This document shows positions 630-60,630 of a DNA stretch of 64,000 bases, piece by piece (the stretch's first letter is position 1; the number at the start of each line of letters is the position of its first letter). The DNA lies in contig CDLV01000004.1 of assembly GCA_001244265.2 (NCBI GenBank), forward strand, positions 1,178,001 through 1,242,000, given 5' to 3'. Below the pieces are notes generated by a model. It did not search any database. It was not told the DNA's origin and saw only the letters and a list, made by a program, of their open reading frames with translations. Origin of the DNA: Microbotryum violaceum (taxonomy: Eukaryota). A program made the position numbers and the translations under genes.

Positions 630-883
630 TGTTTCATCCCACTTAGAATAGTTTAGTATCTAGTTGTTGATATTAGCCGCGCGCCTCTAGCCTTCCAAGT
701 GCGCGCGCCCTGAGCTCTTCTCTCTCTTCTCCAACTATCTTTACTACCATCTTCGGCTCTCATACTTACGTACCTCGTGCCTCGTGCCTCAGGTTAGTCT
801 TGCAATACTTCCAACTATCTTTACTACCATCTTCGGCTCTCGTACTTACGTACCTCGTGCCTCGGGCCTCAGATGTGCTAAAA
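630..883 (+). repeat. copia 5' LTR with internal ~62-bp direct repeat and GTTAGT..CAG intron-like segment (793-872)
   Basis: CCAACTATCTTTAC...GCCTCAG occurs twice (731-792, 811-872); the first copy is followed directly by GTTAGT. Confidence 0.8.
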
Positions 884-2132
884 GGTTATGAGCCACACCG
901 ATCTACCAGCCAACATCGCCCTTCCCGACAGCGACGACGAAAACAGCATGGCCGGCAACGATGAGACGGGCACACCGCCCCTCCACCTTCGCCATTGTCG
1001 AGCCAACCCAACATAGTCGTCCCTCCCATGCACGTTCTACTCACACGCGAGCAATTCGACGACCTCGTCAAGAAACGCCGCTCTGTCGATGACGACGACG
1101 TGTCCAAGCGGAACCTGCTGCCGCCCACGAGCCCTCCGGCATTCCCCGACGAGTCCAAACTCTCGGACAATAACTACGTCGACTGGGACCTCACCATGTC
1201 TCTTACCGCGCCTCGCGATGTATGCCTATACTTGCGCATCGGTTGCCACGACAAAGCCTGGCTGCCCGAACTGCACTCGCGATGGGAGGATTACGCGGCC
1301 CGTGTGCTCGCCAGCTCGCTGACGACCGTCGCGAAGGGCACGATAGGCCCCGTCGCTCAGAAGGGCGGAAATGCCCACGCCTGCTGGGTCGCCCTCACGA
1401 AACGCTACGCTCCCAGTGACGCGCAATCACACTCCACGCTGATCCGTGACTCCTTCAACATGCCGAAATTTCCTTCGACCTGGGCCGGCTTCAACGAGTG
1501 GACGAACCGAGCCATGGTTCTGATCAATCACGCTCGAATGGCCCAACTCGATCTTGAACAAGTCATATTGGCCCGTATGATCGACGACTTACCTCCACTC
1601 TACAATAGCTGGCGCAGCACGTTCTACTCGCTTCAGCCAAACAAAAGCAAGCTTCCAGTCGTTGAAGAGATCTTCGCGTCAATGGAATTGGTTGCTCATA
1701 CACTTCGCAACGAGTCTACTCCAGCTCTAGTGGCCCAAACGCCGAGTTCGACGACGAAAGCGGGCCAGAATAGAAAGGGTTGATGGGATAGGTCGGGTCC
1801 TCCGCCGGGTAACTGTCCTGCATGCCAACAAGGCAAGCACTGGGTCAAGAAGTGTCCCGACATCTCCAGGCGTACCAAGTACCTCGAGCTGAAGGCTGCA
1901 TTGAAGGAGCTTAAGGGCGTCTCTCCTCCCTCCGCTCCGGCCCTCGCCGCAACTGACGACAACGCGTACATGGCCTTCTTCGCTGCGCCCGCCTTCGTGA
2001 ATCTCAACAAGTCTGCGAATCTTCTCTTGGACTCAGCGTCCGCGTACCACGCGCGACGCCGTTGATCGCCGAGCCTGTCGAACAGCTCCCGCCGCCGAAC
2101 GACGAACTTCCGGCACCGGATGACGAAGCCGC
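630..2132 (+). mobile_element. 5' fragment of a Ty1/copia LTR retrotransposon (5' LTR, PBS, gag, start of protease)
   Basis: LTR starts TG at 630 and ends ~883; PBS GGTTATGAGCC at 884-894; gag ORF 995-1783 continues past a TGA into zinc knuckle [14 protein letters not shown] and protease motif LLDSAS (~2025-2040); truncated by the LTR at 2133. Confidence 0.85.
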
Positions 2133-2592
2133 TGTAATACACCCCGTAGGAGTGCACACCGGAGCGACAACGATAAGATCACAGGACCAAAGTATGTAGG
2201 ATTGACACTGGACACTCTACGTTAGTTGCTACTATGACAATGCCTTCTGATACACTTGGGCTCACCTGGACACTCTACGTTAGTCGCTGAGGAGAGTATA
2301 AGAGTGCCCAGGCGCGCGTCTCTTCTCCTAAGGGTCAGGCGCACGGGCCTTACACTCTCCACCACCTATTCCAAACCCTCTCCCATCCTTACACCCTCTC
2401 CTCCCTGTCCTTACCCCCTTCCCAGTTCTCGTTTTCCCACCGGTCTAAAGCTGCCGTCTCTTCCAGATGCAATCTAGGCTCCCAAGTGTTGTCGCTGTCT
2501 GCCCATCCCTTCCATTTAACCAAGAACTTCTTCCTTTCCCTTTCCCTTTTTCATCCACGATGCGTTCCACTTCCCATTCTTCGTTTCCCTGC
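2133..2592 (-). mobile_element. 3' end of a chromoviral Ty3/gypsy element A (3' LTR 2133-2354, PPT, chromodomain remnant)
   Basis: TGTAA...TTACA termini; purine tract next to the LTR on the minus strand; ORF 2445-2768 contains [13 protein letters not shown] (chromodomain); cut at 2592 by the next LTR. Confidence 0.8.
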
Positions 2593-58700: not shown

Positions 58701-60107
58701 TCCAGTGTCGTTGCCCTCCAGTTTGGTGGAAGCAACCGATGCGCCGTCAATATTATTGTCCTCATTGGTATTGTTGGCGCTTGCTAGGTCAGTGGCAGGG
58801 TTAGTGCGGGGACCCAACTAGATCATGTTGGTACCGGAGGCACGAGAGGTCAGGGGTGTAGGCCCGCCGTGCTTTCCGTTCTTTCCGGCGACTCGGAAAC
58901 CACCTGTCGGAGTCGGAGTCAAAGTCGAGGTGCGGGCCCCTGGAACAGGGACAGAGGGGCCGGAGACCAATGTCAACGCTGGCTTCCTGCAGGTGCCCCA
59001 TTTGTGGCCGGCGCGATTGCATAGGCCGCAGTAGTGCGTCTCAAATTCGTGTCGCAAGCCGAATTTGGTACCGAGGATCGCAATTTTGTGGGGCAATGCG
59101 GTGTTGAGTGCCGCCTTTTGCGTCTCGGCCGAACCTTGGAAGAGGTCAGCAGGTAAGCGAAGGTACGCGCAGTGGTACCCATCTTCGGTCATGGCCATCA
59201 GATCGGTCGGATTGGTCGCGAGGCCCCGCTGTAATTGCATCAGGGTATGACCTTGCGTACGACCAGCGCAACCAAGCGAAGCATTGACTGCGTCATCGAG
59301 AGATTTGCGGAGAACAGAGGTGGGCATTGCCGTGAACTGAGGAGGGAGGGTGAATCACATCTGAACAATGCGGTCCAAAAGGGAGGTGCTCGTGAGCTTG
59401 GTGACCATCTCCTTTCCATGATAGTAGAAGGGACCTGCTGCAGTGGCTTCAAGACAGGCCTGGTCAGATTCAAAGACGAGCTCGTACATGTGGCAAGAGA
59501 TGGGAAACCTCTTGGTGGCTTTTGTCACCACAAAGTTCAGCTTGACACATTTCAAGAAGAACTTCTTGACCTCGGGCTTGAGCACCGTCCCCTCGGGCCG
59601 CGCAAACATCAACAGTGTCTCAGCCATCCCAAAGTGGTTACGGATTGCGGTCTGGACGGCCCAAACGGGTGAGCTGGGGGTGTCCATAATGACATGGATG
59701 CTGTTGGAGGCCGGAGTCGCATCGTTCCATACCAGTCGGTTTGCGGCTCGTGCAAGAGTTGGAGCTTGCGAAGCCGGCGTCGAGGGATTGTGCACAAGCA
59801 CCACCAGTCGCCGGGTCAGTTTGCTAGAAGGTACGATCTGGAGTACCCTGCAGGCATTCTGAAAAGCTTTCCCAAGATCAGCTCTGGACTGAGTTGCCAC
59901 GGCGGACCAGGCTGGAGGATTATTGGTTCCTCCAGTGAACATCTCACGGGTTTCCGTGTTGAGTGATTCATCTCTCAACACGTCACCAGCCCACGGAGCG
60001 TTGGGGGGTGCGAGGGTGGGCCGGGCGGATCCGGCATCACTTCTTGTAGTTGTCCTGTAGATCTTGAAGTGGTTGGTGGGCAACTGTACACACTTTGCGT
60101 GTGTGTG
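49773..60107 (-). mobile_element. near full-length L1/Tx1-like non-LTR retrotransposon, degenerate, interrupted by a copia element
   Basis: ORF1 with CCHC knuckle (~60040-58233); ORF2 AP endonuclease (TFNVQS, LQEHH, AGDLN, IDY, SDH), RT (YRPITL, GQGDPL, AFADN), C-terminal CLFC...ETVSHYFFEC; ends in a C20 run on the minus strand. Confidence 0.92.
50884..55661 (+). mobile_element. complete but decayed Ty1/copia element inserted in the LINE ORF2
   Basis: 5' LTR 50884-51149 (266 bp), 3' LTR 55473-55661 (189 bp), perfect TSD GCTGC, PBS GGTTATGAGCTC 51150-51161; WIIDSGA, RSDNG, LYVDDG, YSDAS; frameshifts and a TGA at 54855-54857. Confidence 0.96.
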
Positions 60108-60444
60108 CTTTTTTTTTTGTAGAAAACGTTCATCATATTGCCCCCAGTTCCTGTTCCCCCTGTTTTGGCTTACGGAAAAACTAGATGGAAGACTACAATG
60201 ATAACACAAACCGCCCACAAAAGTGCAAGAAACGAGCCAAGTCCACCAATCCGAGATTCAGATTCAAATACCCTAGCCAAGCGGTTGCTCCCCCCCAGGA
60301 GACTAATGAGAGAGAGAAAGAGAGATGAAGAGAAAAAGAAAGAAAAGAAATGTACTAACAACAGAAGGCCCACCCCACAGCCACTTCCCACTCGGTCAAG
60401 ACAAACACAAGAGCACAACTGCGCAACCACCACGACCCTCAACG

Positions 60445-60630
60445 TGGAAGCACTGCGTGCAGCGGTGCTCCAGAACGATAGACAGGATCAAACAATAGTA
60501 ATTCACTAGAACCTTGGGTCAGTGAGCTGGCAAAAGCCAAGGGAGGTTCTAGGCGCGCGCAAGCTATTCAACTAAGCCAAAAGTTCTATTGCCTTCCATT
60601 GTACCTCGGGCAAAGGCCTCAGGCCTTGCA
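60445..60630 (-). mobile_element. 186-bp solo LTR of gypsy element C (short form)
   Basis: Matches 4452-4694 minus exactly the 57-bp segment 4513-4569; flanks CAACG/CCATG do not match. Confidence 0.92.

Follow-up and report, generated by a model that had tools for sequence, protein, structure and literature searches.

Intron-like segments ending in a copy of the sequence before them recur in long terminal repeats of Microbotryum copia and gypsy retrotransposons: a candidate self-regenerating intron

Retroelements of the Window and Repeats Within Their LTRs

The material of this study was one 64 kb stretch of DNA from Microbotryum violaceum (assembly GCA_001244265.2, contig CDLV01000004.1), hereafter the window, and one mapping of public contigs onto it. 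This transposon-rich part of a Microbotryum genome contains retrotransposons of the copia and gypsy types, and within their long terminal repeats (LTRs) lie short segments that begin with GT, end with AG and carry at their 3' end a second copy of the sequence that precedes them. LTRs were delimited by self-comparison of the window, and the class and strand of the elements were taken from Pfam domain scans, which located copia-type pol (RVT_2, rve, and gag) at 21663-26442 (minus strand) and at 44396-48170 and 51158-54857 (plus strand), and gypsy-type pol (RVT_1, RNase H, rve, and chromodomain) at 2979-8673 (minus strand). The elements have the attributes of LTR-retrotransposons: paired LTRs 99-100% identical, target-site duplications (TSDs) of 5 bp (GTCAA, GATAC, GCTGC, GGCCC, and ATCTT), primer-binding site (PBS) motifs and gag-pol domains. 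A TSD was looked for at the family 3 element, and none was found.

Thirteen LTR copies were recognized, of which nine contain at least two copies of the repeated unit and four a single one (60445-60630, 40799-40987, 55473-55661, and 62879-63045, the last belonging to a seventh family). In the following list, unit 1 is the copy that precedes the GT, unit 2 is the copy that ends the segment, and lengths are in nucleotides (nt) where so marked; ORF stands for open reading frame.

630..883, plus strand: family 1 copia LTR; unit 1 at 729-792, segment 793-872 (80 nt, GTTAGT..CAG) made of spacer 793-808 and unit 2 809-872, U5 873-883; PBS GGTTATGAGC from 884
2133..2354, minus strand: family 2 gypsy 3' LTR, downstream of an integrase and chromodomain ORF; segment 2208-2265 (58 nt, GTGAGC..CAG); unit 1 at 2266-2284 (19 nt, or 23 nt allowing one mismatch)
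4452..4694, minus strand: family 3 gypsy 3' LTR; segment 4513-4569 (57 nt, GTGGGT..TAG), with one private change in unit 2
9480..9722, minus strand: family 3 gypsy 5' LTR; segment 9541-9597 (57 nt, GTGGGT..TAG), units identical at 23/23 positions
60445..60630, minus strand: family 3 one-unit LTR, in which exactly the 57-nt segment is missing, as in the predicted spliced form
21312..21645, minus strand: family 4 copia 3' LTR, 100% identical to the 5' LTR; segment 21336-21405 (70 nt, GTGTGT..CAG); TSD GTCAA
26017..26350, minus strand: family 4 copia 5' LTR; segment 26041-26110, twin of the preceding one; PBS GGTTATAAGC at 26016-26007
31283..31756, minus strand: family 4 solo LTR with three identical units and a 70-nt insert at 31447-31516; TSD GATAC
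49251..49668, plus strand: family 5 solo LTR, related to family 4; segment 49579-49654 (76 nt, GTGTGT..CAG); TSD ATCTT
50884..51149, plus strand: family 6 copia 5' LTR with two units; segment 51059-51135 (77 nt, GTTAGT..TAG); PBS at 51150
55473..55661, plus strand: family 6 3' LTR of the same element as 50884..51149, with one unit; TSD GCTGC
40799..40987, plus strand: family 6 solo LTR with one unit; TSD GGCCC
62879..63045, plus strand: family 7 copia 5' LTR, without repeat, of the one-unit type; PBS GGTTACGAGC at 63046

In all eight segments the sense strand reads as a unit ending in AG, then GT and a spacer, then the same unit ending again in AG, and finally U5. In every case the segment ends in a repeat of the 19-64 nt that precede its GT, and the segments are oriented along the sense strand of the element, as judged from the Pfam domains, in six of six families.

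Boundaries of the Repeats in an Unbiased Census

Direct repeats with a period of 25-300 and a score of at least 15 were collected over the window in an unbiased manner. The census gave 18 rows, 11 of them inside LTRs (exactly the six families, in eight LTR copies) and seven outside (six loci). Five of the 11 LTR rows, belonging to families 1, 2, 3, and 6, contain a repeat that closes exactly on AG and is followed at once by GT, and unit 2 is there followed by a base other than G (ATGTGC, TGTCAA, TGAATT, and TCCTTG, respectively); in families 4 and 5 the repeat extends 2-6 nt beyond AG, through GT(GTGT). There was no LTR repeat without AG/GT among the census rows, and the AG/GT boundary was found on neither strand in any of the seven rows outside LTRs. 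The background frequency per position is 0.00033 for AGGTNNGT and only 0.0039 for AGGT, which excludes chance. An earlier reading of this DNA made from the letters alone (the sequence-only reading) had claimed that boundaries, size and position recur from family to family. Every coordinate that it gave proved exact. AG/GT no commoner than chance among LTR repeats, which would have told against that reading, is contradicted by the census, which recovered exactly these loci with AG/GT in all six families. The pattern in these LTRs is real and highly non-random, and apparently undescribed, a result that we regard as robust. The spacer was also considered as a diverged copy of U5 in a tandem R-U5 arrangement; in the copia elements the lengths are alike (14/14, 16/14, and 16/11 nt), but visual comparison shows weak similarity, and this idea was not adopted.

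Likeness of the Segments to Host Introns

Five introns of the window are supported by RNA contigs (joints 15554/15628, 16635/16722, 17313/17393, 18758/18826, and 19993/20067) and served as reference. They are 67-86 nt long, with the donors GTGGGT, GTCAGT, GTCAGC, GTGAGT, and GTGAGT and the branch motifs CTGAC, CTAAT or CTGAT. All five lie inside 14488-20895, a 6.4-kb unit between 63-bp inverted repeats (93.7% identical) that contains a DUF6589 ORF and a helicase-C ORF and is probably an expressed DNA transposon. A sixth reference is the intron (GTATGT..CTGAC..CAG, 97 nt) of an Oxa1-type ORF at 35025-36572, which shares 96% identity with a protein of M. saponariae.

The donors of the LTR segments of families 1 to 6 are GTTAGT, GTGAGC, GTGGGT, GTGTGT, GTGTGT, and GTTAGT. 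All eight segments are of the GT..AG type, GTNNGT fits five of the six families, and the GTGAGC donor of family 2 is paralleled by the RNA-supported intron with GTCAGC. Segment lengths (57-80 nt) are close to those of the six reference introns (67-97 nt). In five of the six families ACTNAC stands 12-23 nt before the AG; this motif has a background of 0.0007 per position, so that about 2% would be expected per 30-nt window. By these sequence attributes, the interpretation of the LTR segments as ordinary introns of this genome appears well supported.

RNA Contigs

Contigs from runs X13, X18, X19, and X1 were mapped onto positions 630-20629, a stretch that leaves families 4, 5, and 6 outside. The contigs had been built from 31-mers, so that in principle a spliced junction cannot be distinguished from the junction of unit 2 and U5 where units exceed 31 nt; the 61-64-nt units of families 4, 5, and 6 are beyond this resolution. 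Only the gypsy families, with units of 19-23 nt, are informative in such contigs, and this is why the stretch was chosen. Run X1 is a DNA run and X13 behaves like DNA; since joints of the GT..AG or CT..AC type occurred in X18 and X19 and were absent from X1 and X13, the former two behave as RNA. The mapping produced 45 joints, of which 15 were listed.

The informative RNA contig is record 24 of X19 (416 nt, with 15 other letters and 4 gaps), which comes from a sister taxon and is colinear with the window from 4902 to 4485. Starting in the internal region, it covers U3, unit 1, the spacer, and unit 2 of the 3' LTR of family 3 before breaking off 28 nt beyond the AG. The two-unit architecture is thus present and transcribed in the sister taxon, and some, at least, of the family 3 RNA keeps the 3' copy of the segment. 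With the contig reaching 28 nt beyond unit 2, the RNA of this family does not terminate upstream of unit 2; polyadenylation upstream of unit 2, which would be at odds with the sequence-only reading, is contradicted for family 3 by this contig. The contig agrees with a self-regenerating intron as set out below and fits an absence of splicing equally well.

Two further observations were made on the gypsy elements during the mapping. At 6320-6441, contigs skipped 122 nt (CA..CA) in all four runs, DNA included, from which it follows that this gypsy copy has 122 nt that are absent from other copies. At 2592-2721, the depth of X19 RNA contigs was very high, and the contigs diverge from the window below 2592; it seems that an element related to gypsy family 2, but differing at its 3' end, is expressed in the sister taxon.

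Homogeneity, Number, and Kinship of the Units

Within families the units are nearly invariant. In family 4 the five unit copies compared are identical at 62/62 positions, and the 3' LTR, identical to the 5' LTR, adds two more; the single difference in family 3 is private to the 3' LTR copy, and the only difference between units 1 and 2 in family 6 is private to one unit. Between families the units differ: five differences separate family 5 from family 4, each common to both family 5 units, and the LTRs of gypsy families 2 and 3 are homologous (z 7.7) with units that differ at about half of their positions, the two units being alike within each family. Pol proteins of the copia families that were compared (4/6 and 4/5) share 27-43% identity, and the gypsy integrases are 35% identical. 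Units 1 and 2 were identical at insertion wherever this can be dated. Identity within families combined with divergence between them implies that the architecture either is old and has undergone concerted evolution or has been repeatedly re-created, and both readings would require a systematic mechanism. Units identical at birth in families that diverge are what re-copying is expected to leave; ordinary homogenization of repeats would give likewise.

The families are not all independent. Scores of LTR pairs stood above shuffles for 2/3 (z 7.7), 4/5 (z 50), 6/7 (z 5.8), and 1/7 (z 5.3). Accordingly, the kinship of 49251 and 21312 asserted by the sequence-only reading stands, but its statement that five of the six families share no evident similarity was overstated.

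Unit number varies as well. In families 3 and 6, the LTRs with a single unit show the junction between unit and U5 exactly as splicing would yield it. In the family 4 solo LTR (31283..31756), a 70-nt insert (31447-31516, GTGAGT..GGATAG) precisely separates the AG of unit 1 from GTGTGT, and no other copy of it was found within the window; this is a precise presence or absence of an intron-shaped piece at the AG/GT junction. Short LTRs and LTRs with extra units, which the sequence-only reading had derived from alternative annealing, do exist (one unit in families 3 and 6, three in family 4), although ordinary switching of templates on repeats can produce short LTRs and homogenization too. In the family 6 element (50884-55661), which is bounded by a perfect TSD (GCTGC), the 5' LTR is 266 bp long with two units and the 3' LTR 189 bp long with one; it follows from this mismatch that, during insertion or later, one unit was lost (or gained). 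Nearly all relatives of the family 6 polyprotein come from Microbotryum. A metagenome scan with a protein query found no relative, and a metagenome match to the PBS-leader pattern (L001) was rejected as chance, sitting in a bacterial-looking coding region.

A Possible Mechanism and Points Against It

We tentatively propose a self-regenerating LTR intron, rebuilt on reverse transcription by means of a copy of exon 1 at its 3' end, and hold this to be a real possibility, though short of probable. The segments would be short GT-AG introns of the spliceosomal type within the transcribed R region of the LTR, with R spanning the intron. The unit would be exon 1, from near the transcription start site (TSS) to the donor, and its second copy the 3' end of the intron. 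Because the second copy ends the intron, the 5' end of the spliced RNA (unit followed by U5) would be colinear with unit 2 followed by U5. Minus-strand strong-stop DNA, whether made from spliced or unspliced RNA, could pair with unit 2 at the 3' end of an unspliced RNA; when made from spliced RNA it would be the complement of the unit and the start of U5, a contiguous match to unit 2 and the bases that follow. In family 3, the X19 contig suggests pairing over about 50 nt at unit 2 against 23 nt at unit 1. Extension would then copy the spacer, unit 1 and U3, so that the full intron-containing LTR would be restored and unit 2 would be overwritten by unit 1 in every such cycle. Pairing at unit 1 instead would give one-unit LTRs, and misaligned pairing would give extra units. 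A normal intron in R, by comparison, would be lost each time a spliced RNA was copied. What we infer is that the 5' end is spliced, that transcription starts at unit 1, and that strand transfer selects unit 2. A repeat that ends at AG, with a base other than G after unit 2, as in four families, is predicted by a copied exon and not by simple duplication of an AGGT-containing piece. More broadly, at least two LTR superfamilies in Microbotryum could possess a "splice-proof" R that would provide a promoter-proximal intron and intron-dependent expression with no loss on reverse transcription, a generalization that we likewise put forward as possible rather than probable.

GCGCGC(C) followed by a CT-rich tract precedes unit 1 by about 20-55 nt in six of the seven LTR families (679-708, 2311-2317, 4616-4624, 9644-9652, 21485-21521, 26190-26226, 31596-31632, 40861-40868, 50946-50956, 55535-55545, 60552-60560, and 62941-62950), and family 5 keeps only GCGC. 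GCGCGC occurs at 56 sites in the window against 28 expected from base composition. It may be a core-promoter element shared by unrelated LTRs, and with the CT tract it would be compatible with a TSS near the start of the unit.

Several points weigh against a self-regenerating intron. No LTR splice joint was present among the 15 joints listed of 45 (630-20629, where only the gypsy families can be resolved), which does not in itself speak for their absence, and the sole informative RNA contig, record 24 of X19, is unspliced. Family 6 has no ACTNAC, its only related motif being CTCAC, 39 nt before the AG, and CTTAC and CTCAC are weak branch motifs. The family 3 5' LTR is followed (9430-9479, minus strand) by a T run of 9-10 nt, found also in the sister-taxon RNA contig, and then by GACAACGATCAAGACA, with no tRNA-type PBS (tRNA, transfer RNA); 11/13 positions of this leader, allowing a gap of 2 nt, are complementary to U5 sequence of the LTR located 21 nt downstream of the AG, and the leader, if it serves in self-priming as in Tf1, could place the TSS downstream of the segment. 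The repeats of families 4 and 5 are near-perfect 2.0-copy tandem arrays that include GTGTGT, for which plain tandem duplication suffices as an explanation. The family 6 element, with two units at its 5' end and one at its 3' end, is not predicted by the mechanism. Finally, any repeat that reverse transcriptase copies is expected to be homogenized and to vary in copy number. On balance, the proposal of the sequence-only reading draws partial support from the likeness to introns, the one-unit and multi-unit LTRs, the identity of the units, and the family 3 contig.

Alternative Explanations

A first alternative accepts real introns and assigns to the repeat only their origin, through tandem duplication in R (with the first bases of U5) of a piece containing AG/GT; the elements would replicate via unspliced RNA only, and one-unit LTRs would be dead-end spliced or collapsed copies. 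This is consistent with the 1.9-2.0-copy arrays of families 4 and 5 (period 70 and 76), in which copy 2 is followed by GTCTGT or TTGTGT, with the variation from one to three units, and with the unspliced RNA contig through the 3' LTR. However, the repeat stops exactly at AG, with no GT after unit 2, in four of the six families, and the start of the spacer, which a duplicated AGGT piece should show again after copy 2, recurs approximately in families 4 and 5 and is absent from families 1, 2, 3, and 6, whose spacers belong to a range of 16-39 nt and are not repeated after unit 2. Moreover, units are identical within families despite the deep divergence of the lineages (27-43% in pol, 35% in gypsy integrase), so that tandem duplication would need many independent recent events at one place. 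We judge this alternative rather unlikely, but it deserves to be taken seriously.

A second alternative dispenses with splicing. The unit would be an R region duplicated by errors of strand transfer or template switching, the G/T-rich stretch would act in 3'-end formation or bind U1 and so suppress premature polyadenylation, and the look of an intron would be partly coincidental. The donor hexamers are indeed all G/T-rich, and the CAG or TAG at the end of the unit, with a pyrimidine-A before the last base, might be a cleavage site, a pyrimidine-A position of this kind being preferred for cleavage; in addition, no spliced form was seen among the joints listed and the one RNA contig keeps the segment. 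Such an account leaves aside that ACTNAC stands 12-23 nt before the AG in five of the six families against about 2% expected per 30-nt window, that size and donors match those of RNA-supported introns, that a 70-nt piece (GTGAGT..TAG) is precisely inserted or deleted at the junction, and that the spacer is unlike the start of U5 in four of the six families, hence no downstream element is repeated. These observations make the absence of splicing unlikely.

Chance, or ascertainment by the earlier reader, who had looked by eye for GT..AG, is effectively refuted, as the unbiased census finds exactly these loci and AGGT is expected at a fixed boundary with a frequency of 0.004.

Other Features of the Window

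Two tRNA-like genes were called by ARAGORN at 28560-28632 and 41088-41159 (minus strand), within a 158-bp repeat whose copies are 94% identical. The second, which sits 100 bp from the family 6 solo LTR, has the stop-reading anticodon TTA and is therefore probably a mutated copy. An inverted repeat of about 1.7 kb joins 42352-44040 and 60107-58384 (1.5 kb at 98% identity and an adjoining 211 bp at 90%); its ORFs gave no Pfam matches.

Significance and Comparison With Known Systems

Since the template of a retroelement is processed RNA, introns should be lost from such elements. One architecture shared by six ordinary copia and gypsy families would make an intron heritable through spliced or unspliced RNA alike. 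If the self-regenerating reading is true, it would represent a hitherto undescribed means by which a retroelement keeps an intron, as well as a new trick in the replication of LTR elements, with a built-in engine of concerted evolution within R; it would also account for the variation in LTR length (one, two or three units) in these genomes and would tie the intron-dependent expression of basidiomycetes to transposon fitness. That introns raise expression in several basidiomycetes, as the sequence-only reading had stated, is supported by the accessible portions of three reports (PMC3744415, PMC4935854, and PMC7017817). In the portions of the literature accessible to us, supplements excluded, we found no description of an intron lying wholly inside the LTR of an LTR-retrotransposon, nor of a copied exon at the 3' end of such an intron.

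A likeness exists with Penelope of Drosophila virilis, whose pLTR, according to the available text, contains an intron of 75 bp, 46 bp downstream of the TSS, kept on transposition, the deletion of which abolished reporter expression (PMC2377424). Penelope-like elements (PLEs) are described, in the part of the source available, as highly unusual among retroelements in keeping introns (PMC8557442). What would be shared, as far as these texts go, is a short intron of the 5' untranslated region inside the terminal repeat of a retroelement. In contrast, PLEs have a telomerase-like reverse transcriptase together with an endonuclease of the GIY-YIG type and lack strong-stop transfers of the LTR type, whereas the elements studied here belong to Ty1/copia and Ty3/gypsy, Pfam showing copia-type and gypsy-type pol only; and no exon copy at the 3' end of the Penelope intron is described in the portions of these sources at hand.

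Introns can be gained by tandem duplication of an exon segment containing AGGT, known as Rogers' model. There too a direct repeat provides the donor from copy 1 and the acceptor from copy 2, and splicing restores the unduplicated sequence. The LTR repeats differ in that they stop at AG (in four of six families), lie in R of mobile elements, recur in six families and are kept homogeneous.

Deltaretroviruses have a splice donor in R. A cryptic intron is reported for Tf2 of Schizosaccharomyces pombe in the accessible text of PMC7175516. In both, as would be the case here, splice signals coexist with unspliced genomic RNA, but their introns extend far downstream, to an end within the element's body, rather than being wholly contained in the LTR and including a copy of exon 1. 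Elements of the DIRS type belong to another class, with a tyrosine recombinase and no intron. Their internal complementary region lets terminal sequences be rebuilt, and it is in this that they resemble the arrangement proposed here, in which an extra internal copy of a terminal sequence would likewise regenerate the ends of the element during reverse transcription.

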